A stretch of DNA of 64,000 bases. Source: Patescibacteria group bacterium (GTDB taxonomy: Bacteria; Patescibacteriota; Microgenomatia; UBA8517). The stretch lies in assembly GCA_041499035.1 (NCBI GenBank), contig JBGQJK010000002.1, positions 6,571-70,570 on the forward strand, read 5' to 3'. Made by a program: the position numbers and the translations under genes. Shown piece by piece: positions 8,242 through 27,038 of the stretch (positions within the stretch are counted from its first letter, which is position 1; every line of letters starts with the position of its first letter). A model generated the notes under the pieces. It was not told the DNA's origin and ran no database searches. It saw nothing but the letters and a program-made list of their open reading frames with translations.

Positions 8242-8244
8242 TCT

Positions 8245-8466
8245 TTAAAGAATTATTAGAGCAGCCAGAAAAACTAAAACCGCAAAAGCTAAATGAATAT
8301 AGCCAAGCAGGATTATCGGAGCATCGAAACCAAGCGAGAGCGTGGATGTCATTAGTCTGATCTGCCGGACCATAATCAAAGCGAACACAAGATACATTGC
8401 CAAAAGCAGAAGAGCCGCGATTTTAATCACCAGCCAAATAGAAATTCCAAAAATAGGGTTGATCAT
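8245..8466 (-). CDS. small two-TM membrane protein
   Basis: Entirely hydrophobic 73 aa; translationally coupled (ATGA overlap) with the upstream gene. Confidence 0.4.
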   Translation of the reverse strand: MINPIFGISIWLVIKIAALLLLAMYLVFALIMVRQIRLMTSTLSLGFDAPIILLGYIHLAFAVLVFLAALIIL

Positions 8467-9131
8467 TTTCTTTTATCTTTTGTAATCAGATCCTCAATAA
8501 TTTTTGCCACCTTATCAGGATTTGGCACCGCTACGAAATCAAATTCGGCAACTTCCGCGGCAGTTTGAACAAAAACGTCCCCGTAATTAAAAATCGTCCT
8601 GGCAACCCCACCCATATTATATGTAACATCCTGAATTTTATCCAAGTTGGCGTCGGAAACCTCCTTATAAATTAAGTTGTAAAAATCGACGTCGACTACT
8701 CTCATATTTGTAACTATATAAACGTTAAAAAACCAGCTCAAAAAGTTTTCGAAAGCGTATGCCAATGTAATCAAATACCAGGCCATTGTGATAACCAATT
8801 CAAACCCGACCGGAAGAGATGAAAATACACCGAAGGCCGCCATAGTTGCCGGCACAAAAAGCAGCAGTATTGTAACCAAAATCCACTTAACATTAACTAT
8901 CAGGTGTTGCCTTAAAAGCAAAACTATTTTTTCTTCCTTAGAACGGGACTCAAAATCGATATGGTCGGGATAAAAGTAAAAGGCGGACAGGGGGCTATGG
9001 GTGTGTCCGGGGAGTTTAGACTTTTCAATCTCGGTCACTGGAGACTCTTCCGGCAAAACCGATGAGGCCGGCTCCTCAGGAGCTACTGGCTTTTGAGACT
9101 CATTTTTTGGAGAAACAAACACATCCGGCAT
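8463..9131 (-). CDS. membrane protein with bPH_2 (YdbS/YdbT-like) domain
   Basis: Two TM helices followed by 'YIVTNMRVVDVDFYNLIYKEV...GDVFVQTA', a bacterial PH-like pattern. Confidence 0.45.
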   Translation of the reverse strand: MPDVFVSPKNESQKPVAPEEPASSVLPEESPVTEIEKSKLPGHTHSPLSAFYFYPDHIDFESRSKEEKIVLLLRQHLIVNVKWILVTILLLFVPATMAAFGVFSSLPVGFELVITMAWYLITLAYAFENFLSWFFNVYIVTNMRVVDVDFYNLIYKEVSDANLDKIQDVTYNMGGVARTIFNYGDVFVQTAAEVAEFDFVAVPNPDKVAKIIEDLITKDKRK

Positions 9132-9211
9132 GGCAACCTGATTATATCAGGTCGATCTAATAACTTAAAACTAAAACCTACAGCTATTAGATATTAACTT
9201 TTAGTTATTGT

Positions 9212-10993
9212 TTAATGCTTCTCAATATTGAAGAGTGGTCCGACAATTTGGATGTTGCTCGGGGCTCTAAGGTTAAAGTATGTCTTAAAATCCTGACCGT
9301 CAAAATTTCGGCCGTCAATTGTAACGGTAGTTGTTTTTCCGCTTCCGAAATCAGCATTAACCGATATGTTTGAAGCACTGTCAAATGGTGTAATTCCCCT
9401 CGTAGAAAGTTCACTTTTAACTCTGCCAGCGTCCCAGGTATCAACTCCGTCGGGATTTGGTTTATCAACCTGTGTCAGATGATCCTGAGTTGACCCGTCG
9501 GCTTTGGCGAGCAAAATAATGTTTGCAAAGTCTGCAATCTCCTCGGGCTTCAGCCATGCTGTTTTGTTGTAAGAGGAACGGCTGCCCCAATCGCAGTAGA
9601 AAACCGGCGAACTTTTATCGTAGGTGCTATTTGCAAGATCGGAAAAACTGTTTATCCCACCAGGCGCATCCTTAAGCCTTTTGGTCCAACTTGTATTACT
9701 CCAGCCAATATCCCCCGATGTGTAAGCATAGCCCCCGTGTGTTGAGGAAAACCAAGCTTTTATTGGACTTCCCCCGGTAGTCATTACAATACCGCGTGTG
9801 GCGTCCACTGCAGCCTGCCATGCACCATCATTAAGTTCTTTTTTTACTACCTGGCACTGCTGGCTGGGGCAAATACTGCCTGAGCCATTATTTGTGTAAG
9901 CTAATGCGAACGACCTGGCCGCGACTGCCTGGGCTTTAAGAGCTTCCGGATTCCAGCTTGTTGGCATCTCGTATAAATGTTTAAGATAATCGTCAATGTT
10001 CCAAGTGTCGTTAAATGACTGACCAAATTCGTTGCTGCCGGTTACGTGAATGTTAATTGATTGGTTATAACCCGTTGTGTAATCGGCGTTGTAGTAAGTC
10101 TTGAGAATCGTTTCGGCATTCTGACCAGCCTCGGCCCGGCCTTTGGCTCCAAACTGGTTAAGCCCTATCCTGTTGGGCACTCCGTAGCTGAAAAACGCAT
10201 AAGCCGGGCTAAAACCGGGGTCTTTGAAGGGGTTGATATCACTACTGCATCCACCCTTCATGTTGTAAGCGGATCTTGAAAGGCCTAATGTTGCGAGCTT
10301 TGCTGCCAGGAAGGATTGCTGTTTGGCCGAAAGCGTTGCCAAATATGCGCTGGCTTTTGCAACTTCCCCCGCCAAAAAGTTTGCCTTTTCGGTTACTTGT
10401 TTTTGAGCGGCAGTCAAAGCATCTTTATTCTTCTGAAGAGTATCTTCGTCCTGCTTAAGTTTAATCAGATCAGTGGCATATTGAGCCATCGTCTGTCTGT
10501 CGGAATCCGCCGCTCTTTGCCTAAGGTTAATTTCCTGAAAAGCCTGCGAGGCCGTATCGGCAAAAATAAATGGGGTTATGGGATCATAAAGTCTTAAGAA
10601 AGTATATTGGTCTTTGGCCTTTTGATTAAAAATCTCTCTGGTAAAGGCCATTTTCTCCTCGCGCAGGTTAATATCGGCTTGGGTTTGCTTAAGTTGATCC
10701 AAAAAAGAATTTATTCTCGCCGCTAAATTTGCGAGCTGCTTTTGGAGGGCGCTAAGATCCTGTTTATTTTTTTCATTGGCGGACTGAATCGGAGCCAGAA
10801 GTTGCGGGATTCCTACGTTGTAGCACCAATCCTGGTCCCCCTGCGAAAGATCGCTGACATTTTTAGTAAGACATTCCTGGGCAGTTATGGCAAAAACCAC
10901 AGTCGTTTTTAGAATCAAAAGGCCTAATACGGCAAGGGCCGTAGTAATTAATAATTTGAAAGACCTAGAATTAAATGGAAATTGTTTGCCCAC
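9212..10993 (-). CDS. SpoIID/LytB-domain peptidoglycan-remodelling protein with N-terminal TM and coiled coil
   Basis: 'PEALKAQAVAARSFALAYT' matches the SpoIID/LytB signature (EALKAQAVAARTYAL). N-terminal TM and long Q/K/L-rich coiled coil. Confidence 0.6.
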   Translation of the reverse strand: MGKQFPFNSRSFKLLITTALAVLGLLILKTTVVFAITAQECLTKNVSDLSQGDQDWCYNVGIPQLLAPIQSANEKNKQDLSALQKQLANLAARINSFLDQLKQTQADINLREEKMAFTREIFNQKAKDQYTFLRLYDPITPFIFADTASQAFQEINLRQRAADSDRQTMAQYATDLIKLKQDEDTLQKNKDALTAAQKQVTEKANFLAGEVAKASAYLATLSAKQQSFLAAKLATLGLSRSAYNMKGGCSSDINPFKDPGFSPAYAFFSYGVPNRIGLNQFGAKGRAEAGQNAETILKTYYNADYTTGYNQSINIHVTGSNEFGQSFNDTWNIDDYLKHLYEMPTSWNPEALKAQAVAARSFALAYTNNGSGSICPSQQCQVVKKELNDGAWQAAVDATRGIVMTTGGSPIKAWFSSTHGGYAYTSGDIGWSNTSWTKRLKDAPGGINSFSDLANSTYDKSSPVFYCDWGSRSSYNKTAWLKPEEIADFANIILLAKADGSTQDHLTQVDKPNPDGVDTWDAGRVKSELSTRGITPFDSASNISVNADFGSGKTTTVTIDGRNFDGQDFKTYFNLRAPSNIQIVGPLFNIEKH

Positions 10994-11076: not shown

Positions 11077-11661
11077 ATGAAAAGAATAGTTTTGTTATTA
11101 GGTCTTTTTGGGTTAATTTTCTTTTTGCTTCCGTATAAAGTTTTGGCAGGTCCTCAATGCTCTACTAAAGGCGGAAGCTGCTCAACCGCATGCAGCATCA
11201 GCGATACCCCTTCAGGACCTTTAGACTGCCCAACCCAAAATGGAGGTAGAGGGGCACCCATTCAACAAGTTTGTTGTGTACCTCAGTCATCAGGCGGTGG
11301 TAGCAGTGGTGGATCTACTAGCGGCAGTTCTCCAGTAAATATACAAGGACGCTGCGCAATCACAGCAATCGATACAGCAATAGGCTGCATTCCTGTCTTA
11401 AACAGCGATAACGGAACGGCATTTATGGGCTTTATCCTTAGATGGGCCGTGGGCATCGGGGGCGGAATCGCTTTTCTTTTAATTCTTTACGGAGGCTTTA
11501 TGATAATGACTTCCTCGGGTAACCCTGAGCGACTTAAAGCGGGACAGGAACTTCTAACTTCGGCAATTGGAGGAATAATTCTTCTTATTTTCTCTGTATT
11601 CCTGCTTAAGGTTATTGGAATTGACATACTCGGTCTTGGATCTTATGGTTTCGGGAAGTAA
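11077..11661 (+). CDS. pilin-like two-TM protein fused to N-terminal Cys-rich secreted domain (paralog 1 of array)
   Basis: Signal peptide, 10 Cys in 'GPQCSTKGGSCSTACS...CCVPQ', Gly/Ser linker, then C-terminal 'GGFMIMTSSGNPERLKAGQELLTSAIGGIILLIF' matching the array motif. Confidence 0.5.
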   Translation: MKRIVLLLGLFGLIFFLLPYKVLAGPQCSTKGGSCSTACSISDTPSGPLDCPTQNGGRGAPIQQVCCVPQSSGGGSSGGSTSGSSPVNIQGRCAITAIDTAIGCIPVLNSDNGTAFMGFILRWAVGIGGGIAFLLILYGGFMIMTSSGNPERLKAGQELLTSAIGGIILLIFSVFLLKVIGIDILGLGSYGFGK

Positions 11662-11669
11662 AAATAGAC

Positions 11670-12005
11670 ATGTTATTGGCACAAAACTTAGACGCAATTC
11701 AAAGCGGAGGAATTCCAGGTTTTACAATCCCTAATGGCGGGCTTGCATCTTCCGGTGTTGGTACGCTAATTACATTATTAATCCCGTATATATTTGAGGC
11801 CGCGGCACTTTTACTTTTAATTTACTTCCTACTTGGGGGGTTACAGCTTATGACGTCGAGGGGAGACCCTAAAGGGATACAAGCTGCTCAGGGAAAAATT
11901 GTCAACGCTTTAATTGGTTTTGCAATTATTCTCCTCGCGGGCTTTGTAGTGCTACTATTAGGGAGATTATTAAGAATAAATGTTTTTACAGGATTAATCG
12001 TTTAA
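11670..12005 (+). CDS. pilin-like (VirB2/TrbC-like) small two-TM protein, paralog 2
   Basis: 'LLGGLQLMTSRGDPKGIQAAQGKIVNALIGFAIILLAGFVV' shares the conserved motif with its neighbours. Confidence 0.5.
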   Translation: MLLAQNLDAIQSGGIPGFTIPNGGLASSGVGTLITLLIPYIFEAAALLLLIYFLLGGLQLMTSRGDPKGIQAAQGKIVNALIGFAIILLAGFVVLLLGRLLRINVFTGLIV

Positions 12006-12010
12006 AAAAA

Positions 12011-12301
12011 ATGGATATAAATAGTATTTTTGGCTCTCCTCTTACCCAACTTACGAATGTGGCAGGGCTAGTTACCATTTTTTTAAACGCGATCTTTGTT
12101 ATTGCCGGTCTTATTCTACTTTTTTACTTTATTTTGGGGGGAATAGGAATGATAAATAGCGCCGGGAAAAACGACCCGCGGGCAGCGGAACAGGCGAAAC
12201 AGACTGTTACTTCGGCTCTTATTGGGTTTGTTGTTGTAATTGCTGCCTACTGGATAGTAAAATTAACAGGAACGCTTTTAGGGATTCAAAATTTAATATG
12301 A
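12011..12301 (+). CDS. pilin-like small two-TM protein, paralog 3
   Basis: 'ILGGIGMINSAGKNDPRAAEQAKQTVTSALIGFVVVIAAYWIV'. Confidence 0.5.
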   Translation: MDINSIFGSPLTQLTNVAGLVTIFLNAIFVIAGLILLFYFILGGIGMINSAGKNDPRAAEQAKQTVTSALIGFVVVIAAYWIVKLTGTLLGIQNLI

Positions 12302-12630
12302 CCAACCCATTCGGATCAGTAAAGATGCCTAATACCGCTCTTGGAACGGATCCTGGCTTAGCTATCGGAAAAATAGTCCAGCTTGTAATTTGGGTTTTAC
12401 TCATAAGTGCTGGTGTTTACGCACTTATTAATTTTATTTTAGCCGGCTATGCATTTATGTCTGCTGGGGATGATGCCAAAAAAATCGAGGGTGCCTGGGC
12501 AAAAATCTGGCAGACAGCACTTGGTCTGGCAGTTGCAGCTGGCGCCTTTGTGCTGGCTGCAATTTTTGGCCAGCTAATTTTTAACGATCCTACAATTCTT
12601 TTCAATCCAACTATCCCAGCCTTACCATAA
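12298..12630 (+). CDS. pilin-like small two-TM protein, paralog 4 (divergent)
   Basis: 'ILAGYAFMSAGDDAKKIEGAWAKIWQTALGLAVAAGAFVLA'; ATGA overlap with the previous gene. Confidence 0.45.
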   Translation: MTNPFGSVKMPNTALGTDPGLAIGKIVQLVIWVLLISAGVYALINFILAGYAFMSAGDDAKKIEGAWAKIWQTALGLAVAAGAFVLAAIFGQLIFNDPTILFNPTIPALP

Positions 12631-12635
12631 ATAGA

Positions 12636-13001
12636 ATGAAAAATTTATTATCGCAAGTCAGTTTTGGTACATTTAAGGGCATCGGATCTGGAAATCTATC
12701 TAATTCAACCGGTGGCATAGCAACCCTGGCCAGTTTTATTACATCTGTAATTGGTGTCATGACAATAGTTGCAGTTATCTGGTTTATTTTTGTGTTTATC
12801 ACCGGTGCAATCGGGATAATTGCAGCAGGAGGAGACAAAGGCGCTCTCGAGAATGCCAGAAAAAGGATCACTACAGGACTAATCGGTTTAGTGGTCGTCA
12901 TTATTGCAACTTTTGTGATTGATTTGATCGGATATTTGCTCGGCTTTCCTTCCAACGGAATTTTAAATATTGTTAACCTGTTTAATACTCTACCCAAATA
13001 A
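12636..13001 (+). CDS. pilin-like small two-TM protein, paralog 5
   Basis: 'ITGAIGIIAAGGDKGALENARKRITTGLIGLVVVIIATFVI'. Confidence 0.5.
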   Translation: MKNLLSQVSFGTFKGIGSGNLSNSTGGIATLASFITSVIGVMTIVAVIWFIFVFITGAIGIIAAGGDKGALENARKRITTGLIGLVVVIIATFVIDLIGYLLGFPSNGILNIVNLFNTLPK

Positions 13002-13005
13002 ATAA

Positions 13006-13323
13006 ATGATAAAAAATCCGGTACTAGGGGGCTTGGGTGCGACGGCCGGCATCACCTTTTTCCAAACATTCTTTGGTAAGCTTGTAGCGGTTGCCCTTAT
13101 AGCAGGATCCGTAATTTTTCTTTTTATGCTGATTACTGGGGCAATACAGTGGATTTCTTCCGGTGGCGACAAGCAGGCACTTGAAAATGCAAAAAGCAAG
13201 GTGACAAACGCGATCGTCGGAATTATAATTCTGTTCGCTATTTTTGCAGTAATAAATTTTGTCAGCTCTTTCTTTGGAAATATCCCAATATTAAACGCGC
13301 CTCTAAATCCCGTTACCCCTTGA
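13006..13323 (+). CDS. pilin-like small two-TM protein, paralog 6
   Basis: 'ITGAIQWISSGGDKQALENAKSKVTNAIVGIIILFAIFAVI'. Confidence 0.5.
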   Translation: MIKNPVLGGLGATAGITFFQTFFGKLVAVALIAGSVIFLFMLITGAIQWISSGGDKQALENAKSKVTNAIVGIIILFAIFAVINFVSSFFGNIPILNAPLNPVTP

Positions 13324-13362
13324 CACGGCGTTTTAAAAAGGCCAATAATATAAAATACAGAT

Positions 13363-13701
13363 ATGGGGAACTCTCTGCTCGCGCAAATAAACTTAAAGCC
13401 GGATGCTAATTCGGGCTTCAGTAACCTGGGAGGCTATACTTTACCCGGAATTATATCCGCTCTTATAAAAGGGGCGTTGGTTGTGGCAGCAATAGTTTTC
13501 TTCTTTATACTCGTCCTCGGCGGAATAAAATGGATTGCGTCGGGTGGCGATAAAGCGGCAACAGAGGGTGCAAGAAATCAAATTACGGCGGCCCTAATCG
13601 GCCTTGTAATAGTCTTTGCTGCTTGGGCAATAGTTTCCTTAATCAATACTTTCTTTAACGTAAACATTTTCTCCTTGACACTTCCTCAAGTTAGCGGTTA
13701 A
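13363..13701 (+). CDS. pilin-like small two-TM protein, paralog 7
   Basis: 'VLGGIKWIASGGDKAATEGARNQITAALIGLVIVFAAWAIV'. Confidence 0.5.
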   Translation: MGNSLLAQINLKPDANSGFSNLGGYTLPGIISALIKGALVVAAIVFFFILVLGGIKWIASGGDKAATEGARNQITAALIGLVIVFAAWAIVSLINTFFNVNIFSLTLPQVSG

Positions 13702-13746
13702 AACGGGCTTGCTCAATCTTGCCCCCTAGTCTAGAATTGTCTTTAT

Positions 13747-14022
13747 ATGGACCCTGCGCGTATAACTGACCTCCAAACAGTCTTTGTTAATGTGGTAAAG
13801 GTTGCTATTGCTGCAGCCGGAATAGCTTTGTTTGTCATGCTTCTTATTGGTGGATTTAAATATATAACCTCGGGTGGGGATCCTAAGGCAACTGAGGGCG
13901 CGCAAAGAACTATCACTTATGCAATCGGCGGACTAGTCCTTATTCTTGCGGCCTACTTAATACTTTTACTCATACGAACCATAACAGGGGCTCAAGTGAC
14001 CAACTTTACCGTGGTCCAATAA
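13747..14022 (+). CDS. pilin-like small two-TM protein, paralog 8
   Basis: 'LIGGFKYITSGGDPKATEGAQRTITYAIGGLVLILAAYLIL'. Confidence 0.5.
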   Translation: MDPARITDLQTVFVNVVKVAIAAAGIALFVMLLIGGFKYITSGGDPKATEGAQRTITYAIGGLVLILAAYLILLLIRTITGAQVTNFTVVQ

Positions 14023-14042: not shown

Positions 14043-16571
14043 ATGAAACGCTTTCTGCCCATTTTCGCAACCCTCTTCGGGCTTTCCTTTTTTTTTCCAA
14101 AAGCTTCAAAAGCCCAATACACACCTTTAAACGATGTCCCAATCCCCCAGATTCACTTTCCCTGTGACAAACAAACTCAACCCGAATTTGCTTCTTTAAG
14201 ACCTTACCAGGCAGCAGCCTGCGGAGACGCTGACAAAGCACTCTACTGCAGCAACGATCTTATATTCCTGGAGACTTTTAACAGCTTTCCGGAATGTGGA
14301 GGCCAAGCGCCCGCAGGGGAGGGAAAATTTATTTGCAACACAAATAAATTTATTCCAAACCATAATTTAATTGTAGATTTGGCCAATAGCGATCTCCCCA
14401 TCCTTGGAAATACCGAGTTAACTAAGGACAGCATCAACTCGACCGATAAAATTAGTGATGCGGGAAAAATGAATGAGTATGCAAGCTGGTACCTTAACGG
14501 AACTCTTAATAGAGCGGAGTACGGACAAATTGACCCTACCCAGATTGCCGATTATTCGGGACCAATTCAAAAAGTCATGCCCCAAGTAATTCTTGAGGCC
14601 GATAGAATAGGCACAATCGCCTCAGCTTCAGCAATGACAACATATATTCCGGAAAATGACAACGGCGGTACTGCGGCCCCACAAGCCACTACTGAGCCCC
14701 AAAACCATAACCAGATAGTTGTTTGCTATAAGAAACAGGCCCAACTTATTCCGCCCATCATCACAAATTTTTTTGGGCTTGGAGCAGTAGGGCTAGGCAA
14801 GGCACTTCCCGGGGATTGTTACGATGGGGCTGGTCACATGACAGATGGGCTAAGCATACTGAGACTTGAAAGTTGGGATAAATCCAGTCCTACTGTTGAT
14901 GTTGCCGGCATTGCCAGCTGGCTTCTTAAAATTTTTCCTCCGAATATTGTGTCTATACTTACAAGTAGCACTGCCATCCTCGATCGCTGGCCATATAAAT
15001 TTCCCCCTCTCCCTTGGTCGGATAAAAACGGTCAGCCTTTTTCTAGTCCGGACGCATATCAAAAGGCTTATAACGAATGGCGGGGGCAACTCTGTGCTTA
15101 TATTTCATTCCCAATACTGGGAACCAAGTTATTTTGTGGCGGAATTCCGGGCGTAACAAATAATGATTTTGCAGACCTTTTTCCCTTTATTCCCCTCGGG
15201 AACACTGTTGATAAACACGGCTCCGAAACCGCATATATAGCGGAAATTCAGCCACTGGGAGAGACCCAGATTGCTGACCCTTCGTACGATGTACCAAAAA
15301 ATGCTCCCCTTTGGTTCTCACACACCGAAGAAGTAATGAACATGTCAAAGTTCTTAAACTCCAGTTATACCCCCCTCGACTGCACAGTAACTAACGGTAA
15401 ACAAACCTGTCAGCCACTTGCCAGTGTAGCGGAACCTAAAACTACGGAGGCGAATGTCTGCAACGTAGTAAATGTAAGAACAAATTCGGGAGATAACCTC
15501 TTCCCCGGCCAAACACATGGAGTCGTGGTCCCCAATGTTCACTACACGATCACACAAGTCCCGTGCGAGAAAAAAATAGTAATACAGACGATCGGAAAAC
15601 CCCCTAATGAAAAAACAGTAAGACGAACCGTTATCACTTGCGATGCCGAAATAAATATAACAATCCCCACAATTACAAAGAGTCCATCACTTGACCCGAT
15701 ATTCCAAAGCACGGTTGCTTATTCCGGGTCTACATTCAGGAAGATCTATCCCAAAGTGGAAACGGGTGCCCCTGTAAATTGTATTGCGGATATTCCGGGT
15801 TCAACCGGAGTTGATTACACGGGAACAGATAACGTACCCGCGGGTGGAAACAGCTCGTTTAAATATAAAAATCCTGCGCTAGGTTCAAACAATGCCTCCG
15901 AACTATATTTTCCACACCTCGGTTCAGTCTATGACTACTTTCTTAAAGGCATTCAAACCGCTCTACGCCCGCAAGGATTCGGAGCCCCAACACCAATAAG
16001 CGGAAAGTACTGCAGTCCGACAGTACCAACCCAGTGCAATGCCAACGTCCCCGATTCAGCCGTCTCCAGCAAATTTCTTGGCGCTTTCAAAACCAACTTT
16101 ATACTCGTTGCCGACAGGTGGACTCTTGACTGCCCCGGGCCGCAATACAATTTGGCTGCTCAATGTTACAACTACGTTGTCAGCGAGGCCCAGAAAGCCG
16201 GTGTTAATCCTGCGTTTGCTTTGTCTATTTGGCTTCATGAATCAGATGCAAGCAACTATTGTCATGGCGGCCTCTCTACTCAGGATTTTGGACAAAATGT
16301 TGCCAGCGAGTATCAAAATATAGTTGCTCAGTTAACTGGATTCTTGGCTATGGCAAAGCAAAAGCTCTGCAACGGCGTTCCGGGATTCCCTGAACCCATG
16401 GCCGGTTGGCTAAGTAGATATAAAAGTAGTTCCGGTTCATGTAATCCGGCAGACTCTGATGCAATGAGCTATTACCCTGAAATTCGGGATACATCCTGGG
16501 GAGTGCTAACTAATTGTGTGAAAGGTACCAAATTCGGAATTACCTGGCCCACCGATATGAGTTGTCCCTAA
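14043..16571 (+). CDS. large secreted Cys-rich protein (842 aa), possible lysozyme-like C-terminal region
   Basis: Signal peptide 'MKRFLPIFATLFGLSFFFPKASKA', >30 Cys. C-terminal 'YNYVVSEAQKAGVNPAFALSIWLHESDASNY' resembles the catalytic E-S region of lysozyme-like/SLT folds; this is weak. Confidence 0.45.
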   Translation: MKRFLPIFATLFGLSFFFPKASKAQYTPLNDVPIPQIHFPCDKQTQPEFASLRPYQAAACGDADKALYCSNDLIFLETFNSFPECGGQAPAGEGKFICNTNKFIPNHNLIVDLANSDLPILGNTELTKDSINSTDKISDAGKMNEYASWYLNGTLNRAEYGQIDPTQIADYSGPIQKVMPQVILEADRIGTIASASAMTTYIPENDNGGTAAPQATTEPQNHNQIVVCYKKQAQLIPPIITNFFGLGAVGLGKALPGDCYDGAGHMTDGLSILRLESWDKSSPTVDVAGIASWLLKIFPPNIVSILTSSTAILDRWPYKFPPLPWSDKNGQPFSSPDAYQKAYNEWRGQLCAYISFPILGTKLFCGGIPGVTNNDFADLFPFIPLGNTVDKHGSETAYIAEIQPLGETQIADPSYDVPKNAPLWFSHTEEVMNMSKFLNSSYTPLDCTVTNGKQTCQPLASVAEPKTTEANVCNVVNVRTNSGDNLFPGQTHGVVVPNVHYTITQVPCEKKIVIQTIGKPPNEKTVRRTVITCDAEINITIPTITKSPSLDPIFQSTVAYSGSTFRKIYPKVETGAPVNCIADIPGSTGVDYTGTDNVPAGGNSSFKYKNPALGSNNASELYFPHLGSVYDYFLKGIQTALRPQGFGAPTPISGKYCSPTVPTQCNANVPDSAVSSKFLGAFKTNFILVADRWTLDCPGPQYNLAAQCYNYVVSEAQKAGVNPAFALSIWLHESDASNYCHGGLSTQDFGQNVASEYQNIVAQLTGFLAMAKQKLCNGVPGFPEPMAGWLSRYKSSSGSCNPADSDAMSYYPEIRDTSWGVLTNCVKGTKFGITWPTDMSCP

Positions 16572-16619: not shown

Positions 16620-18185
16620 ATGTCCAAGCCGCTCAAAAAAATTGTATTTTCTTTTTTAACTGCACTCGTCCTTCTTTTTTCTTTTGCTCCATTTTTTAGA
16701 GCAAAAGCTGCAATCCCACCGGGAGGAATAAATGTCGGCATTGACCCAAGTAATCTTTGGAGTCATACGTGGTATGCCGAGGAGAATCCGTTTGCCTGGT
16801 ATCAAAAAGTTTACGACGATTCTATATCCCCAACCAGCGAGATTTTTGGAGAACGCTATACGGCCGCACAAGTCCAGTGGGTTATTTACGGGCTTTTCTC
16901 CTTCTTCTGGAACTTTATACCTGGAAACCCGCAACTGACAACCTGCGCTATTAGCGGGGATATCAGCAGCTGCCAAACCTTGCTTCAAAAACTCCAAAGT
17001 GCTATCAAAATAGGTGATAGTAGCGGGCCGACGCCGGCATCAACTACGGCATCTATATTTACTTTTGCTGGCCAGAATCCGATTTCAGGAGTTTATTATT
17101 TTAAAAACCTGATCGGGAAATTTTCCCTAATATCCGAGGTTCACGCCCAGGGGTTTGGCTACACAAACGCAGCAAATTCAATTGTAGGTATTTGGAGAGT
17201 TACCAGAAATATTAGCTACGGCTTTATGGTATTGGCCATAATCATTTTTGCTTTTATGATTATGTTTAGAGTAAAAATCAATCCCCAGGTAGTTATTACA
17301 GTTCAACTCGCAATACCGAGACTGGTATTCGCATTAATCCTCATTACTTTTTCATATGCAATCGCAGGGTTCGCGATCGATTTAATGTATGTAACAATCG
17401 GGCTTTTAGCAGTATTAATAAACGGGGCTCAGTTAACAAGCGAGACACCTATCCAGCTGTTCCAAAACTTTGTCTCGAGCAATAGTTTTGTATTATTATA
17501 TAACTACTGGATACATTTATTGGTCGCAAGTATTGTTGCCACGGTTTCGCCCGGTGGAGGATTCGGGCTTGGAATTCTTCTTGTCCTATTCGCAATAATT
17601 GCTATTCTTGCAGTTATATGGTGGTCCCTCAAAATTGTTTGGATGGTAATTAAAACGTTTGTGTCAATTATTCTGACGATCGTCGTTGGACCGTTAGAAA
17701 TAATGCTCGGGACAGTCACTGAATCTACAGGTTTTGGCGCGTGGCTTAAAAGACTGATATCTTATTTGGCGGTTTATCCTATGATGTGTTTAATGTTTTT
17801 TCTGGCATTTTTCTTCCTCAATCAGGGCGGGGACACAGCCGGATTCGGAGGGACAATTCCGTTTAACCCGGCAACAAATTTCATAGGTCCTAATTCGTGG
17901 GTTCCGCCTATGTCATTTTTAACGGGAAACGGACAAAGGTTAATATGGATTCTTGTAAGCTTTGTTATTTTCAGCGAGATAACAAAAGTCGCAGAAATGG
18001 CACAAAAATTTATTGAGGGTAAGCCGTGGGAGTATGGAACTGCTGTTGGAGAAGTGAGACAGGGTGCAAAGAACGTTGGTCAGTCCGCAACCGACTTCGC
18101 AAGACTATATGCCTCCACTAAGGCTATCGGAGGAACTGCACAAGGAGTAGTCAACGCTCTAAAGTGGCTAGCATTTATGCCGTAG
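16620..18185 (+). CDS. VirB6/TrbL-like polytopic membrane protein (type IV secretion inner-membrane component)
   Basis: Signal/TM, ~150-aa extracytoplasmic N-domain, then 6-8 TM helices rich in aromatic and Gly residues. Its position upstream of a VirB4-like ATPase fits VirB6/TrbL architecture. Confidence 0.5.
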   Translation: MSKPLKKIVFSFLTALVLLFSFAPFFRAKAAIPPGGINVGIDPSNLWSHTWYAEENPFAWYQKVYDDSISPTSEIFGERYTAAQVQWVIYGLFSFFWNFIPGNPQLTTCAISGDISSCQTLLQKLQSAIKIGDSSGPTPASTTASIFTFAGQNPISGVYYFKNLIGKFSLISEVHAQGFGYTNAANSIVGIWRVTRNISYGFMVLAIIIFAFMIMFRVKINPQVVITVQLAIPRLVFALILITFSYAIAGFAIDLMYVTIGLLAVLINGAQLTSETPIQLFQNFVSSNSFVLLYNYWIHLLVASIVATVSPGGGFGLGILLVLFAIIAILAVIWWSLKIVWMVIKTFVSIILTIVVGPLEIMLGTVTESTGFGAWLKRLISYLAVYPMMCLMFFLAFFFLNQGGDTAGFGGTIPFNPATNFIGPNSWVPPMSFLTGNGQRLIWILVSFVIFSEITKVAEMAQKFIEGKPWEYGTAVGEVRQGAKNVGQSATDFARLYASTKAIGGTAQGVVNALKWLAFMP

Positions 18186-18192
18186 AATGCAA

Positions 18193-20583: not shown

Positions 20584-21627
20584 ATGGAACAGCACGCAAT
20601 ACCACAAAATGTATCTTCATACCAATTTAAATTGGTTGGAGATATGACGCTTAAACAGTTCTTTCAACTTGCGGGGGGTATTTTGGCCGGCATAATTTTT
20701 TATTCGTCCCCGCTTCTCGGCATAATCAAATGGCCGCTCGCAATTTTATCGGTACTACTTGGAATCGGACTTGCGTTTCTCCCTCTTGAGGAGCGTCCTT
20801 TGGAAAAATGGATCTTCGCTTTCTTTAAAGCAATCTACGCGCCTACTATTTTTTCCTGGCAAAAAGGCGCCACACGCCCAAAGTTTTATCAGGACGAAAC
20901 CCCTACAGCTTCCAACCCCGAACAGGACGCGGCTCTTAAAACTTATTTGGCAACGACTTCTCAAACTTCCACAGCCTTAGGAAATCTGGAAAAGGCGGAG
21001 AGCGGGTTTCTTGCCCAACTCACCGGGCTCTTTTCCCTGGGCCAGGGTACCACCCCCGCGCCCGCCCCCGTAGCGCCCCCGGTAGCCGCGCCGCCAAAGC
21101 CGGCGGTTGTACCGATTCCGGAAAACTCGCCGGTAAAAATTCCGGCAGCACCAACTCACCTGATCGTTGAAGAGAAGTTGATACCCGTAGTTCCCCAAAA
21201 CCAAGTCACCACAAACCAGGTTGTTGGGATTATTGCAGGCAACGAAATGATCTCGACCAAACAGGCAATGTTTTCTGTAGACGCAGCTCCACCCAATCCC
21301 CCCACCTCACCCAATGTAGTGGTAGGCCAGGTCGTAGACCAGGACAGAAAAATCATAGAGGGAGCAATTATGGAAATTAAAGACTCAATGGGACGCCCAA
21401 TAAGGGCCCTCAGAAGCAACAAGGTGGGACACTTCATTACGGTTACCCAACTTGATAACGGAAGATATGAAATTGTTACCGAAAAAGACGGCTATGAATT
21501 TACCCCGGTCTCGTTTGACGCAAACGGCAATCTTATTCCGCCAATTTTGGTTCAAGGAAAAAGGTTGGCACCTGAAGTAGAAGAGGCGCCCCCGGCAATA
21601 GTCAAACCGGCTTACTCAATCAATTAA
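20584..21627 (+). CDS. membrane protein with Pro-rich linker and C-terminal carboxypeptidase-regulatory-like (transthyretin-fold) domain
   Basis: Two N-terminal TM helices, 'PAPAPVAPPVAAPPKPAVVPIP' linker, and 'VVGQVVDQDRKIIEGAIMEIKDSMGRPI...DNGRYEIVTEKDGYEF' resembling the CarbopepD_reg/Cna-B pattern. Confidence 0.4.
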   Translation: MEQHAIPQNVSSYQFKLVGDMTLKQFFQLAGGILAGIIFYSSPLLGIIKWPLAILSVLLGIGLAFLPLEERPLEKWIFAFFKAIYAPTIFSWQKGATRPKFYQDETPTASNPEQDAALKTYLATTSQTSTALGNLEKAESGFLAQLTGLFSLGQGTTPAPAPVAPPVAAPPKPAVVPIPENSPVKIPAAPTHLIVEEKLIPVVPQNQVTTNQVVGIIAGNEMISTKQAMFSVDAAPPNPPTSPNVVVGQVVDQDRKIIEGAIMEIKDSMGRPIRALRSNKVGHFITVTQLDNGRYEIVTEKDGYEFTPVSFDANGNLIPPILVQGKRLAPEVEEAPPAIVKPAYSIN

Positions 21628-21631
21628 TAAT

Positions 21632-22324
21632 ATGTTAAATATTCCAAAAATACCTTACTTATCGGTTCCGGATAAGCCAATCACTTCGACGACTCAAAAT
21701 CACCTGCCTATCGCCGACGTAACAAACGATGTTGCTCTTTATAAGGACGGTGGGGCCGCCCTTGTCATGGAGTCAACTTCCTTAAACTTTGGGCTTCTTA
21801 GTGAAAAGGAACAACAGGCAGTGATAGCCGCATATGCGGCCATGATTAACTCTCTTTCTTTCTCGGTCCAGATAATAGTTAAGACACAGCGAAAAGATAT
21901 TAGCTCCTATATCAGCTACATTGACCAGCAGGCCAAAAAACTTACCCACCCTCTTCTTCAAAAATTGATGGCGGAATACCGCGGATTCATTATGGACTCG
22001 GTTAAAAAGAAAAACGTCTTGGGAAAGCGGTTTTTTGTTGTACTTTACCTTTCCCCCCTTGAACTTGGCGTCGGAAAATCAATAGCGGCAGTAACCAAAA
22101 GGGGCGAAATGCTTCCTTTTACAAAATCGTATGTCGTAAAAAAGACAAAAATAGTTCTCTACCCCCGGCGAGACCACCTGATGCGGCAGGCGGGGCGCCT
22201 CGGAATTAAATTTAGACAACTTACGACTGCCGAACTTATTGATCTTTTCTATTTGGTTTATAACCCGGAACGTCCAGCAGTTAAAAAAGAACCTGAGGTT
22301 ATATTAGAACATAAGCAGCAATGA
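21632..22324 (+). CDS. hypothetical protein; start codon overlaps the stop of the VirB4-like gene's upstream neighbour (translationally coupled)
   Basis: ORF ends in ATGA overlap with the VirB4-like gene; no motif I recognise. Confidence 0.35.
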   Translation: MLNIPKIPYLSVPDKPITSTTQNHLPIADVTNDVALYKDGGAALVMESTSLNFGLLSEKEQQAVIAAYAAMINSLSFSVQIIVKTQRKDISSYISYIDQQAKKLTHPLLQKLMAEYRGFIMDSVKKKNVLGKRFFVVLYLSPLELGVGKSIAAVTKRGEMLPFTKSYVVKKTKIVLYPRRDHLMRQAGRLGIKFRQLTTAELIDLFYLVYNPERPAVKKEPEVILEHKQQ

Positions 22325-24186
22325 AGATACAAGTTCCCGTTAATCAAGTTCCACCTCCGGCGCCCGCTGCAAGTCTTCTTGTTGTGGACAATCACACTTC
22401 AACCCCAGTCATCAAAACTCAGGAACTAAAACCAAAGATGGAAAGCCCCGCTGCAAGTGTGGCTCAAGGAGCAAGTGTTCTTGATATTATTGCCCCCCAG
22501 GCGATCGAAGAAGATTTTGATTTTTTTAAAATCAACGATGTATATTTCCGGACCATTTTTGTGGGCGGTTACCCCAGATTTGTGGCCCCGGGGTGGCTTG
22601 AGCCGGTTGTAAACTTTGATTCAAGCCTTGATATATCTTTCTATGTTTACCCCGTGGACGGAAAAAGCGTTCTCGATGATTTACGGCGCAAAATTGCGGA
22701 GATGGAGGCGGAAATTTCAACAGATATAGAACGCGGCAGAATCGTTGACCCTTCAACCCAAGCCAAACTTGAAGACGCAAGGAGTCTGCAGGAACAACTT
22801 GTCAAAGGCATTGAAAGATTCTACGAATTCAGCTTTTATATAACCATTCCCGCAAACACCGTTGAGGAGCTTAACCACGTGACCAAACAAATTGAGTCCC
22901 AACTCGGCTCACTTTTAATTGTCAGTAAACACGCCCTACTCGACCAGGAAGCCGGTTTTCTTTCAACCGCCCCGTTTGGGATGGACAGACTAAATATAAC
23001 GAGAAATATGGACACAACCTCTGTTGCTACAACTTTTCCTTTAACTTCAACGGAACTTTCAAGTGACCGTGGTGTTCTTTACGGAATAAACTCACAAAAC
23101 GAGTCTTTTATTATTTTCGACCGGTTTTCCCTTGAAAACGCAAACATGACCATTTTTGCTACCTCCGGCGCCGGAAAATCCTACTTTGTTAAGTTGGAAG
23201 CCCTAAGGTCACTTATGATTGGAACGGAAGCTATAATAATTGACCCAGAAAGCGAATATAAACCCTTGGCCCAAGCCGTAGGTGGAGAATATATTTCATT
23301 TAATTTTAATTCCCCTGCTAAAATCAACCCTTTTGACCTTTCTCAAGTCCGTGAAGAGGGCGAAAACCAGCTGGGGCAAAAAATTCTTTCGCTCCATTCA
23401 CTAATGAAAGTTATTATGGGAGTAATCACCCCGACCCAGGAGGCACTCCTCGACAGGGCTCTCGTTATGACCTACCGAAACAAAGGAATAACTATGGACC
23501 CCGACACACAATCTAGGGAACCCCCTCTTATGGAAGACTTGTATAAAACTTTAATCGGCATGGAGGTTCCCGACGCACTGGATCTTTCCGCCCGCATCGA
23601 AAAATTTGTCCGCGGGAGCTTCGTTGGAATTTTTGACAAGCAAACAAATATAAATATAACAAATCCTTTTACCGTTTTTTCGGTCAAAGACCTGCAGGAT
23701 GCCCTGCGTCCCATCGCCATGTTTATAATTCTTGACTATATTTGGACGCGCGTTAAGAAAGACTTAAAGAGAAGGATTCTGATAATTGATGAGGCCTGGC
23801 ACATGATGCGCTATCCCGACACTGCGCAGTTTCTTTGGAGTGTGGTTAAGAGGGCCCGTAAATACTTCCTGGGACTCACTACAGTAACGCAGGACGTCGA
23901 AGACTTCCTGGCGCAAGATATTGGTAAGGCAATCATTACAAACAGCTCCATGGAGGTTCTCCTAAAGCAATCCCCCGCGGCAATTGACAAAATCGGAGAA
24001 GTGTTTTATTTAAGCCAGGGAGAAAAACAACTACTTTTGGCCGCAAATGTCGGCGAAGGAATATTTTTTGCCGGACCCCACCATGCACCAATAAGAGTCG
24101 TGGCTTCCGAGGATGAAAACATCTTAATTACAACCAAGCCCCAGGAAATTGCGAAAGTAAACCCAAATCAATATGAAGCAAAATAA
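22321..24186 (+). CDS. VirB4/TraC-family type IV secretion ATPase
   Basis: Walker A 'FATSGAGKSYFVK', Walker B 'RILIIDEAWHMM' (the DEAW box typical of the VirB4/CagE/TrbE family), ~620 aa. Confidence 0.75.
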   Translation: MKIQVPVNQVPPPAPAASLLVVDNHTSTPVIKTQELKPKMESPAASVAQGASVLDIIAPQAIEEDFDFFKINDVYFRTIFVGGYPRFVAPGWLEPVVNFDSSLDISFYVYPVDGKSVLDDLRRKIAEMEAEISTDIERGRIVDPSTQAKLEDARSLQEQLVKGIERFYEFSFYITIPANTVEELNHVTKQIESQLGSLLIVSKHALLDQEAGFLSTAPFGMDRLNITRNMDTTSVATTFPLTSTELSSDRGVLYGINSQNESFIIFDRFSLENANMTIFATSGAGKSYFVKLEALRSLMIGTEAIIIDPESEYKPLAQAVGGEYISFNFNSPAKINPFDLSQVREEGENQLGQKILSLHSLMKVIMGVITPTQEALLDRALVMTYRNKGITMDPDTQSREPPLMEDLYKTLIGMEVPDALDLSARIEKFVRGSFVGIFDKQTNINITNPFTVFSVKDLQDALRPIAMFIILDYIWTRVKKDLKRRILIIDEAWHMMRYPDTAQFLWSVVKRARKYFLGLTTVTQDVEDFLAQDIGKAIITNSSMEVLLKQSPAAIDKIGEVFYLSQGEKQLLLAANVGEGIFFAGPHHAPIRVVASEDENILITTKPQEIAKVNPNQYEAK

Positions 24187-24188
24187 TT

Positions 24189-27038
24189 ATGGCCGCTATA
24201 GAAGTTCCTAATATTGATCTAAAAACAGCTAAGGCTCTTAGAAAGGCTTTTGGTTATTTCTATTCTGACGTAGATCCCGAAAAGACCGAAGCATTAAGAA
24301 AGGCTTTTGGTTATTTCGGTGATCTAGAAAAAAACGCTCCTGATATTAAAGAGCCTGTCGATTTTAAAGATCCGGATACAGGAATTGCCTTCAAAACGTC
24401 TGCCGACTTTAGAGCCGAATTAAAAAAACTTGGACTTCCGGAAGGCACACCGGTTAAAAACATCGGGATTGAGGTTGAGAGGTGGTATGAAACGCTCCAA
24501 CGGGGCGAGACAACAATGGCCGGGGCTCCGGAACCCGAAAACGCTGCAAATGTACCTAATGCAGGACTCCGGGAAGCCCAAAAAATAGAATACGAACAGC
24601 GACTGGCTGCAAAAATGGCCGCTGATGAAAATGCCAAGGCTGACGTTGAAAGAATGATTAAGAGATATAAAGACCGAACTATAACGGTAGTGCCAAAGGA
24701 TCTCCAAACTCTTACTTTAGATCCGAACCAAAAAATGACTATTTATAGGTACGCTCAAGCTGCAGCTTCTGACCCGGGAATAACACAGGAGGAAGTTGCA
24801 AATATTATGCGGGGTGCAATCCCTGAAGAGCTAAGGGATAGTATCCCCGAACAAGCTATTCAAAATACGGCGCGGGGTTTTGTCGAGAAGGCGCGGGGTT
24901 TTGCCGAATATAAAACGGCTGAAGAGATTCCAACCGAAACTACAATTATGAATCCAGCCGGACCGCCGGCCGCTCTCAATGATCCTAACAATAAAGTTTT
25001 TCAGGAAATAATTCCTGAAGAGGAAGTGAGAGTGGCCCTTGCATCAGATGCCCAGGTTATATCTTATGCATTTGCAGCAAGATACGACACGGAGACAACA
25101 TTAACGGCGCCACTTTTCGGTGGAGATACTACGCTCACATGGTCATTTTATGGTCCGCCATCTACGGAGTTTGAGCCGGTAAAAGGTGAAAACAAAAATG
25201 GTATTAAACTCAACCTTAGCGTAATTCACGAAGCCGGAAGCGATGTAAAAGAGTTTGTTGCCAAAGTGCCCAAGCTAGGAGTTTCCGGGGAGGGAAGAGA
25301 AGTTGCTTCAACAGGCATTGTCCCGACCAGGGTTCCCTATCAATATACGGGCGACGAAGCTCTCGCCAAGCGGGCCCAAGGTTTCTTGCAGAAGGAAAGA
25401 TTCGGAAGATTTAGGGGGTTCAACACTCAAGGCGAATACGCTAAATACGTTACGCGTATTTCCAAAACCTCAGAATTGTCCAGAGATGTCCCCGTTACCC
25501 CTGGCGTTATGGCGGGTTCAACAGATGGTGCTGTAAGGATACTGTTTACACAAATGGCCTTAAAAAAGGCCCCTCTTTTACTCGTACCGAAAGTAACAGA
25601 AGCTATAATTAAGGGTGGTTTCCAAACCACTGCTTTAGCATCACTCGCTACTGAAGGTCGGGTTATATATTTTGCAGGGCTTGGGAAATACTCATTTAAC
25701 ATTGTCAACCTTTCCGGGGCATCCTCTGAACTCTATATAGCTGGTCTAAACTTCGGGAACAGGGCTTTCGGACTAGGTCTTGCAAAAACCGGAGGAAAGG
25801 TTGTGGCCACCGGAATAATCACAAAAGGCGCCACAGGTCAAATAACAACCCGAGCCCTCCCCGCCCTTTTTTCAAAAGTTGGCTCTTGGCTCGGTTCAAT
25901 TGCCCCTATCATTGGCAATATCCTGGGAGCGATATCTGGCTGGATATTCGGAAAGGTACTTGACAAAATCCCCTGGAAAAAAGTTAAAGAATGGTCTGCC
26001 GCAATTCTCGGAACCGCGGCCGCAATAATTTCCTTACCCTTTGTAGGCTTGGCGGCAGCGTTAGGAATAGGTGGGGCTACAACTGTAATTTCTGCGCTTT
26101 TTGGTGGCGGCCTTGGAGGATTAACTTTAGGCGGGGTTGGAGCTAGTGTGGGAGGGTTTCTTGGCGCTCTTATTCTCACAACACTAGGCAACATCGCGGG
26201 ATGGCTTTTTGTAGTATTTATTTCCTTCTCATTAATGGTCACTCTAATTCTTTTTATAATTAATGCAGGCGCTTATGTAGTTCCCCAAATTCCTGAGGTT
26301 GCGACGGGCGCTGTAGGACGAACGGGTGTTAACGTGGTATGTTCAACCGATAAAGGCCCAGTGGGTGTCAGCGGGCCAACGTCCTCTTCTCCTATCGCAA
26401 ACCGCGCATGGGAAATCGTATTTGATCTTTACCAAGGTTTTTGGTGCTTTTGGAATAGATCTCCCAGCAACGTTCCTTGGAATGGCCCCCCCAGACCTGA
26501 TTTTCCCAATGACATCGTCAAATATCCACCAAACTACCCGCAGCCAATATATTTTGACTATAATCTTTACGCAGTAAACAAAAACCCTTCAGAAAAAAGC
26601 GGACCGGACCTTTTTTGGTGTACAGACCTGGTTATCAAGGCATATCAAGAAACCGGCCACAACATCCCACCAGACCTGGGGGTCGCCGAAATGCACGCAC
26701 ACTGGCCTGTAAACAAAATTATTGCCGCAAAAGACGCAACGCCTCAAAATATAGTTCCGGGAAGCGCAGTTTTCTTCAGAGTAACTTCCGGTGATTTCGC
26801 AAACCAGTTAAATCATGTGGGAATTGTCTACTCTGTAGACCTCGCGGGAATTACCGTTGTCGAATCAAATAATGCCGTTAAAAGCGAAAGAATAACTTTT
26901 ACATTTACTACGGCAGGATCCTGTACGCCTTTGTGTCTCAAAAATGCGACTTTCCAGGAATGCGGCTGTTATGGTCAAGTAAATGGCGTGGCGAACCTTC
27001 CCGGAATGCTGGTGGATTCTTTTGGATTACCATACTAA
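24189..27038 (+). CDS. T4SS-associated cell-wall hydrolase-like protein: N-terminal repeat domain, Gly-rich multi-TM region, C-terminal CHAP/NlpC-P60 domain
   Basis: C-terminus 'FWCTDLVIKAYQETGH...HVGIVYSV...VVESN' has the Cys...His...polar pattern of CHAP/NlpC-P60 peptidases. Mid-region 'GGGLGGLTLGGVGASVGGFLGALIL' TM helices. Tandem 'ALRKAFGYF' repeats at the N-terminus. Confidence 0.55.
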   Translation: MAAIEVPNIDLKTAKALRKAFGYFYSDVDPEKTEALRKAFGYFGDLEKNAPDIKEPVDFKDPDTGIAFKTSADFRAELKKLGLPEGTPVKNIGIEVERWYETLQRGETTMAGAPEPENAANVPNAGLREAQKIEYEQRLAAKMAADENAKADVERMIKRYKDRTITVVPKDLQTLTLDPNQKMTIYRYAQAAASDPGITQEEVANIMRGAIPEELRDSIPEQAIQNTARGFVEKARGFAEYKTAEEIPTETTIMNPAGPPAALNDPNNKVFQEIIPEEEVRVALASDAQVISYAFAARYDTETTLTAPLFGGDTTLTWSFYGPPSTEFEPVKGENKNGIKLNLSVIHEAGSDVKEFVAKVPKLGVSGEGREVASTGIVPTRVPYQYTGDEALAKRAQGFLQKERFGRFRGFNTQGEYAKYVTRISKTSELSRDVPVTPGVMAGSTDGAVRILFTQMALKKAPLLLVPKVTEAIIKGGFQTTALASLATEGRVIYFAGLGKYSFNIVNLSGASSELYIAGLNFGNRAFGLGLAKTGGKVVATGIITKGATGQITTRALPALFSKVGSWLGSIAPIIGNILGAISGWIFGKVLDKIPWKKVKEWSAAILGTAAAIISLPFVGLAAALGIGGATTVISALFGGGLGGLTLGGVGASVGGFLGALILTTLGNIAGWLFVVFISFSLMVTLILFIINAGAYVVPQIPEVATGAVGRTGVNVVCSTDKGPVGVSGPTSSSPIANRAWEIVFDLYQGFWCFWNRSPSNVPWNGPPRPDFPNDIVKYPPNYPQPIYFDYNLYAVNKNPSEKSGPDLFWCTDLVIKAYQETGHNIPPDLGVAEMHAHWPVNKIIAAKDATPQNIVPGSAVFFRVTSGDFANQLNHVGIVYSVDLAGITVVESNNAVKSERITFTFTTAGSCTPLCLKNATFQECGCYGQVNGVANLPGMLVDSFGLPY

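Follow-up and report, generated by a model that had tools for sequence, protein, structure and literature searches.

A secreted, cysteine-rich protein with an exchangeable, predicted lysozyme-like domain in the type IV secretion locus of Woesebacteria-type Patescibacteria

The window analysed here is a stretch of 64,000 nucleotides from contig JBGQJK010000002.1 (assembly GCA_041499035.1) of a Patescibacteria group bacterium of the Microgenomatia, and it carries a type IV secretion system (T4SS) locus with a gene for an 842-residue, cysteine-rich protein. This protein combines a conserved core with a C-terminal domain that is predicted to have a lysozyme-like fold and that is exchanged at a conserved junction, independently of the core. 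With a probability of about one half, it is an accessory part, peculiar to its lineage, of the chromosomal and non-conjugative T4SS or pilus of Woesebacteria-type Patescibacteria, which would cleave peptidoglycan by means of an exchangeable catalytic module and is probably directed at the wall of a host. The T4SS of these bacteria is itself already known (PMC10633639, PMC12102498, PMC12857230). The protein family was not found described in the searched portions of PMC10633639, PMC12102498 and PMC12857230.

The exchangeable C-terminal domain and the exported core

The gene (14043-16571, forward strand) belongs to a large family. A word-indexed search returned 307 homologues with 33-66% identity, all of them annotated as 'hypothetical' and none with a Pfam domain, and a profile search of 1.84 billion cluster representatives (50% identity) gave 825 matches at E <= 1e-3 and 456 at E <= 1e-30. 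Most homologues align with the 842-residue query only across residues 1-650. The boundary between the core and the exchangeable domain is marked by the junction motif TALRPQGFGAPTPI (15957..15998, +; family consensus IQTALRPKGYGEP..SG..C), which is written across the family as FLKGIQTALRPxG[YF]G.P..SG..C and in which F633, L634, G636, I637, Q638, R642, P643 and G645 are invariant. After this junction at least six sequence classes of 180-290 residues are found, with characteristic cysteine counts of 7, 9, 11, 13 and 19. The C-terminal domain of the window's protein (residues 645-842; 15975..16568, +) contains nine cysteines, ends in WPTDMSCP and represents class 1. Used by itself as a query for homologues, this domain gave a single 202-residue fragment.

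The clearest case of exchange is provided by the homologues P0045 and P0053, in which the cores are 97.8% identical and the tails are unrelated directly after 'GYADPNPISG' (junction LRPxG[YF]G). At the DNA level these two loci are 91.8% identical over the pilin genes and the core, up to approximately residue 622, are not alignable through the tail, and can be aligned again (82%) from 8 nucleotides before the stop codon through approximately 72 codons of the next gene; at PrgI they are 98% identical. The same picture is obtained across the family. The mean core identity is 0.509 within a tail class and 0.486 between classes, and for only 75 of 120 sequences does the nearest core neighbour carry a tail of the same class. 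When members of one class are compared, tail conservation equals or exceeds core conservation in five of six classes (in class 1, for instance, 0.52 for the tail and 0.44 for the core, and in class 3, 0.70 and 0.56; the exception is class 0, with 0.45 and 0.53), and the correlation between tail and core identity is weak (r 0.16-0.38 in the four classes that offer more than 30 pairs). The variation of the tail is the shuffling of discrete modules and not fast drift, and the C-terminal domain is thereby shown to be a cassette that is exchanged at a conserved junction, independently of the core. Co-variation of the tail class with the type of the VirB6-like protein encoded downstream, as expected of an interacting pair, was considered and rejected (partial correlation 0.08).

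The reading frame of 842 codons was described in an earlier note on this DNA as encoding a secreted, cysteine-rich protein without transmembrane segments, and most of that description stands. The frame is present as described, and its start codon is right because the alignments of homologues begin at residue 1-4; the same protein is also recorded in assembly GCA_041485065.1. Residues 1-25, MKRFLPIFATLFGLSFFFPKASKA (14043..14117, +), form a predicted Sec-type signal peptide with K/R residues, a hydrophobic core and S-K-A at positions -3 to -1, so that, judged by the -3/-1 rule, cleavage would occur after SKA (MKRFLPIFATLFGLSFFFPKASKA|QYTP). A lipobox cysteine is absent from the N-terminus, and a K/R-containing, hydrophobic N-terminus is observed in 114 of 120 homologues. 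Besides the signal peptide, no 19-residue window exceeds a Kyte-Doolittle value of 1.5-1.6, in agreement with the earlier note. The count of more than 30 cysteines given there had to be corrected to 24; these are indeed spread over the whole length, from residue 41 to residue 841. Cysteine makes up 2.85% of the protein and 0.55% of the 38 open reading frames of at least 200 codons in the window, a five-fold enrichment. Of the 24 positions, 17 keep their cysteine in at least 35 of 42 aligned sequences, a pattern expected of disulfides in an exported protein. Since the 24 cysteines are mostly conserved, approximately 12 disulfides probably stabilise the protein outside the cell. With its 24 cysteines the protein would depend on an oxidative folding system, and in one related genome a DsbB-family gene is located a few kb from the locus (L004, 898-1407).

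The core (residues 26-644; 14118..15974, +) contains 15 of the 24 cysteines. When the full-length protein was modelled by AlphaFold2 with a 120-sequence alignment, a mean predicted local distance difference test score (pLDDT) of 87.8 and a predicted template modelling score (pTM) of 0.79 were obtained, with disorder only at residues 1-30 and pLDDT below 50 at residues 1-4 and 15-30. The model is confident for residues ~30-644, where a mixed alpha/beta structure without a solved structural relative is predicted. Neither the 842-residue protein nor its C-terminal domain is matched in Pfam, NCBIfam or PHROG, and a phmmer search of the protein against the PDB returned nothing. Going by the model, a conserved extracellular body without a known fold accounts for about 75% of the protein. 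Several polar core residues are invariant or nearly so (H222, Q224, D390, H427, E430, R479, N481 and D484) and occur in motifs such as NHNQIVVC, NTxDK, FAHTxEV and VNVRxNxGD; they could mark a second catalytic or metal-binding site.

A conserved N-terminal region, a sharp junction and exchangeable C-terminal domains are also the hallmarks of polymorphic toxins, and the protein could accordingly be a secreted substrate, namely an effector that is set free in the medium or reaches competitors and lyses walls; it would be encoded with the T4SS without being part of the machine. Several features make this quite unlikely. No immunity-like gene is present downstream, where instead a VirB6-like gene is located in 61 of 66 loci at a median distance of 48 bp, and no orphan cassettes were found among the examined loci. 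Double hits in L064, L084 and L085 were considered as orphan cassettes and rejected, as they are split or frameshifted genes. In addition, the core of 620 residues is far more conserved than a delivery stalk requires, and the T4SS channel would not be needed for export because a Sec signal is present. A two-step route similar to that of pertussis toxin, which is exported in this manner by the Ptl system, may apply by analogy.

Predicted fold of the C-terminal domain and its conserved glutamate

When the C-terminal 198 residues were modelled alone, an all-helical structure was predicted with high confidence (pLDDT 90.7, pTM 0.86). The fold relatives listed for this model include LytB, MltC, Slt70, FlgJ and MltD, together with the type VI secretion effector Tse3, phiKZ gp144, the Tn916-like Orf17 hydrolase 4hpe and the type III secretion enzyme EtgA. 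The predicted structure thus corresponds to the alpha-helical lysozyme-like fold of GH23 enzymes (SLT and goose lysozyme) and of GH73, and a lysozyme-like assignment of the domain by fold is supported by the model; class 1 is the only C-terminal class that was modelled.

The putative catalytic residue is E733 in 'IWLHES' (GAA codon at 16239..16241, +). It is invariant in a 45-sequence alignment (A3) that takes in two C-terminal classes, is located at a C-terminal helix end and forms, with S734, an E-S motif like that of GH23. A profile of the family, compared with PDB sequences, matches only the goose-type lysozymes 3wyh and 3mgw, with an E-value of ~1 that is not significant alone. In this alignment VNPAFALTIWLNESGASNY is set on VDPAVIAGIISRESHAGK, so that E733 falls on the catalytic Glu ('ISRES') of goose lysozyme, and 'DFGIN' is set on 'GfGLMQ'. 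The earlier note had pointed to a lysozyme-like C-terminal segment with a region resembling the catalytic Glu-Ser of such enzymes. The string on which it relied, SEAQKAGVNPAFALSIWLHESDASNY, is present and its Glu is E733, and the structural similarity that would be expected is seen in the predicted fold; the proposal is therefore supported by the predicted fold and by the invariant E733, but not by curated sequence models. The Pfam models SLT (PF01464), SLT_2 and Glucosaminidase are matched neither by the protein nor by its C-terminal domain, even at E <= 5.

The other C-terminal classes point in the same direction. A class-2 relative matches Pfam SLT with an E-value of 7e-4 and 19.5 bits, under the cut-off of 21.3 bits, and a class-0 profile places the invariant Glu on the catalytic-Glu helix of MltC, in a weak alignment (E 0.43). 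In other classes an invariant Glu follows a hydrophobic helix in the form of 'GEG', 'EIES', 'NENGG' or 'LETG'. Profile-profile links between tail classes, with the junction removed, connect classes 2 and 4 (96%), 1 and 3 (54%), and 0 and 2 (52%). From these motifs and links, all tail classes appear to be divergent lysozyme-like domains.

The glutamate also bears on a structural role for the protein. The protein could be an adhesive analogue of VirB5 at the pilus tip, in which the lysozyme-like domain would serve as a non-catalytic glycan binder for host surfaces. The signal peptide and the place of the gene between the pilin genes and the VirB6-like gene are reminiscent of virB5 in the virB operon of Agrobacterium, which sits between the pilin genes and virB6; a large, conserved, disulfide-rich body would fit such a role, and a variable distal domain would suit host recognition. 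However, no Pfam VirB5 match is obtained, and a mixed alpha/beta protein of 842 residues is compared here with helical VirB5 proteins of ~220 residues. Moreover, retained catalysis is suggested by the Glu, which does not vary in class 1 and has an invariant equivalent in four other classes. A VirB5-like role is therefore considered unlikely.

The type IV secretion locus

The gene order of the locus is as follows: genes for a 633-residue protein, DUF5657, a 222-residue protein and SpoIID (all on the reverse strand), eight pilin genes (+), the 842-residue protein gene, a gene for a 521-residue protein (+), a gene for a 761-residue protein (-), and then PrgI/VirB3-like, TrsD/TraC-like, VirB4, a 949-residue CHAP protein, dnaN and dnaA. 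For comparison, open reading frames were called in 85 fetched loci and searched with the proteins of the window; the neighbour counts refer to loci with enough flank. The 842-residue protein gene is located 4 kb upstream of the PrgI-TrsD-VirB4 genes, and this position within the T4SS cluster is kept in ~70 loci. Directly upstream, 64 of 67 loci have an orthologue of the last pilin gene (pil8), separated by a median of 12 bp, and directly downstream the polytopic VirB6-like gene is found at the frequency given above; in the window, no terminator-like site is present in either flanking gap. The earlier note had placed the gene between a pilin array and a VirB6-like gene and had suggested that its conservation there be examined. 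The position is correct and is kept in ~70 species-level genomes, so absence from syntenic loci is not observed, and the name 'VirB6-like' is based on topology and position.

The eight VirB2-like T4SS pilin genes, pil1 to pil8, occupy 11077..14022 (+); pil1 matches Pfam PF18895, and several of the pilins were matched. Each of the eight paralogues is positionally orthologous over ~70 species-level genomes (L004-L085), as the n-th small open reading frame best matches the n-th pilin of the window, which marks the array as an ancient and stable set of eight different subunits. Recent amplification or antigenic variation is suggested in PMC12102498, but a heteromeric filament accords better with this array. 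The product of pil1 (11077-11661, +, 194 residues) carries a cysteine-rich and Gly/Ser-rich N-terminal extension, CSTKGGSCSTACS...CCVPQ, before its pilin domain, which the other seven lack.

The downstream gene (16620..18185, +) encodes the 521-residue polytopic membrane protein, a candidate VirB6 analogue for which a hydrophobicity scan gives a signal or transmembrane segment and ~8 further transmembrane segments (~9 hydrophobic segments). Searches of Pfam, NCBIfam and PDB sequences gave no match for it. In the close relatives L086 (4440-8350) and L087 (5983-10080), which have flanks that are 92-98% identical, DNA alignment fails across the region that corresponds to 16620-20478 of the window and comprises the VirB6-like gene's body, the large gene on the minus strand and the small gene after it; the divergence of the VirB6-like body and the minus-strand gene therefore constitutes a second hypervariable module in the T4SS locus. 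The 761-residue protein is recognised by phmmer in only 4 of 85 loci, and a minus-strand gene for 660-890 residues occupies its position in every locus with called genes listed.

The T4SS core genes (20584..27038) are syntenic in most of the 85 loci and were assigned with Pfam and NCBIfam: PrgI/VirB3-like (20584-21627, +), TrsD/TraC-like (21632-22324, +), the VirB4 ATPase (22321-24186, +) and a 949-residue membrane protein with a C-terminal CHAP domain (24189-27038, +), in which no lysozyme-like domain was found by sequence. A second wall enzyme is encoded divergently from the pilin array, a 593-residue, membrane-anchored SpoIID protein (9212..10993, -; Pfam PF08486, E 4e-15), which 67 of the 85 loci have in the same place.

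These two enzymes are central to the question of which wall is cut. The 842-residue protein could be a functional VirB1, which would open the bacterium's own peptidoglycan for assembly of the T4SS channel and the eight-pilin filament, with the core only positioning the enzyme. A lysozyme-like hydrolase (VirB1, PrgK or TcpG) is a usual constituent of T4SS loci, and VirB1 homologues are reported to be rarely detectable in Patescibacteria (PMC12102498), so that such a gap could be filled by this protein; the predicted fold, the conserved Glu and the fixed place in the pilin operon are in line with this. On the other hand, the membrane-anchored CHAP protein encoded directly after VirB4 has the position and architecture typical of PrgK-like hydrolases, and SpoIID is also present in the locus. 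A role at the own wall is disfavoured because these two enzymes could already remodel it, and because a domain whose target is this slowly changing wall is not expected to swap among six classes on near-identical cores. A VirB1 function is thus possible but doubtful.

The block on the reverse strand that contains SpoIID (6340-10993) is conserved alongside the pilin operon in 61-67 of the 85 loci and may belong to the same apparatus. In addition to SpoIID (593 residues, with an N-terminal anchor), it encodes the 222-residue membrane protein with a weak bPH_2 match, DUF5657 (73 residues) and the 633-residue protein without a family. On the other side, a 264-residue protein (26933-27727, +) with an N-terminal hydrophobic segment and a Big_5 (bacterial Ig-like) domain is encoded in overlap with the end of the CHAP gene and is possibly a further surface component. 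The dnaN-like (27711-28826, -) and dnaA-like (29017-30378, -) genes, named from N-terminal sequences and position, follow directly after the T4SS cluster; the locus would thus adjoin the replication origin, as is reported for Microgenomatia (PMC12102498). Near the start of the window, four NUDIX-domain genes (400-909, 1658-2227, 2330-2875 and 2827-3294, all -) are found with an endonuclease/exonuclease/phosphatase gene (948-1661) among them, a cluster with a possible link to the salvage of nucleotides in a reduced genome.

In terms of distribution, 78 loci with the family were recovered from species-representative genomes. Titles that name a lineage refer to Candidatus Woesebacteria, Microgenomates, Microgenomatus or 'Patescibacteria group', that is, to metagenome-assembled genomes of Woesebacteria and Microgenomatia, and many bins titled 'uncultured Gammaproteobacteria' that carry the same locus are evidently mislabelled. 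The equivalent place after the pilin array is without such a gene in the Saccharibacterial locus SEML1_0006-0019, and the family looks like a T4SS component specific to Microgenomatia. A phage origin was rejected, as none of 22 pattern-matching stretches in viral contigs codes for a relative and no PHROG match exists. An origin from a mobile or conjugative element is unlikely: the locus is chromosomal, adjoins smpB and dnaN/dnaA and is syntenic across ~70 species. In one sub-lineage (L070 8996-12127; L079 8972-12247; L082 2-2800), a longer homologue of 930-1090 residues is found, with ~285-345 extra N-terminal residues. In L070 and L079 this homologue (1043-1091 residues, ~340 of them extra) is encoded at the end of the PrgI-TrsD-VirB4 operon and not after the pilins; the gene is still in the VirB4 operon, and the link with the T4SS therefore survives rearrangement.

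Proposed role and comparison with known systems

Among the wall-penetrating, adhesive and secreted-substrate roles proposed in the earlier note, which are not separable by computation, machine-associated wall cutting is favoured. In this mechanism, the protein would be exported by Sec with removal of its signal peptide, as its N-terminal sequence suggests, and would be held in shape by its disulfides. The core would then associate with the pilins, the polytopic VirB6-like protein or both, in keeping with the tight and conserved operon position, and the C-terminal domain would cleave the glycan strands of peptidoglycan via E733, an activity suggested by the predicted fold and the conserved Glu. 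The exchangeable cassette would act on the wall of a bacterial host at the contact or pilus site and not on the cell's own wall. The host wall is the likeliest substrate because the tail is an exchangeable cassette and the locus has two other wall enzymes (SpoIID and CHAP), and because near-identical strains would have no evident cause to replace a domain that works on their own wall. A domain that meets variable walls or lysozyme inhibitors of hosts would have such a cause, which favours this reading.

Several points weigh against this proposal. No significant match to a lysozyme or SLT family is obtained for the 842-residue protein, and its profile match in the PDB has the marginal E-value given above. 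For classes 3, 4 and 5, a lysozyme-like nature is suggested by the Glu motif that they conserve and by weak links between profiles. The protein lacks any cell-wall anchor, lipobox or transmembrane segment that could account for its retention at the surface. Association with the pilus or with the VirB6-like protein is read from gene position, and the choice of the host wall over the own wall as the substrate is likewise an argument from the locus and the exchange. Finally, we know of no host that has been assigned to Woesebacteria.

A more specific picture can tentatively be drawn, in which the protein is a host-breaching 'warhead'. The novel-fold body would dock on the eight-pilin filament or on the VirB6-like channel and present a disulfide-hardened, lysozyme-like cassette that cuts the host wall, and exchange of the cassette would track host wall chemistry or host lysozyme inhibitors. 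If true, this would offer the first molecular access to the way in which these uncultivated epibionts breach their hosts. More generally, the family is a candidate wall-cutting component for the T4SS of Microgenomatia, in which the hydrolase and VirB6 parts are reported to be mostly undetectable (PMC12102498). Since the T4SS is essential for epibiotic growth in the sole species tested (PMC10633639), such a component matters, and the swapping of an enzymatic tail between close relatives is a pattern that points to the host interface. The small, disulfide-bonded C-terminal domains should be expressible, and their specificity could help in guessing unknown hosts.

One of the closest known systems is the T4SS of Patescibacteria described by Wang et al. 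2023 (PMC10633639) and Quinonero-Coronel et al. 2025 (PMC12102498). It is chromosomal, mostly without a relaxase and essential for epibiotic growth in a Saccharibacterium (PMC10633639), and VirB1 and VirB6 homologues are reported to be scarce in Microgenomatia and rarely detected in the group (PMC12102498). The window shares VirB4, TrsD, PrgI and the pilin array with this system, and its locus is likewise chromosomal beside dnaN/dnaA, with no relaxase seen in it.

In terms of function, the protein resembles VirB1, PrgK, TcpG and TraG of pIP501, which are also encoded with a T4SS, in having predicted export and a lysozyme-like domain of the SLT/GH23 kind in which one Glu of the catalytic type is conserved. 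In contrast to VirB1-type hydrolases, it has no significant SLT match and no NCBIfam match, its domain is C-terminal to a body of 620 residues without a known fold, and its family shows a high predicted disulfide content and at least six shuffled domain classes. The hydrolases of Gram-positive T4SSs have an N-terminal membrane anchor, whereas a cleavable signal peptide is predicted here, and the PrgK-like position in the window's locus is filled by the separate CHAP protein. Identity to goose-type lysozyme/GH23 and to GH73 glucosaminidases is only 9-14%, the Pfam models are unmatched and the domain contains nine cysteines; the predicted fold does not establish membership of the GH23 or GH73 sequence families. 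The protein does not fit the VirB5/TraC family, given its lack of a Pfam match, its 842 residues and its predicted mixed alpha/beta structure, and only the gene position and the signal peptide are alike.

Polymorphic toxins (CdiA-CT, Rhs, MafB) are similar in their conserved N-terminal body, sharp junction, interchangeable C-terminal modules and breakpoints at the junction, but in the loci examined this family is without a downstream immunity gene or orphan modules, and its classes look like one fold that has diverged. Although relatives of the family are absent from viral contigs, phage tail-tip lysins offer a likeness in the placement of a wall-cutting module on the structural body of a penetration device. 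What sets the protein apart from hydrolases of the VirB1/PrgK type is the combination of a large core with a novel predicted fold, a predicted cleavable signal, a disulfide-rich composition and a shuffled, putatively catalytic module.

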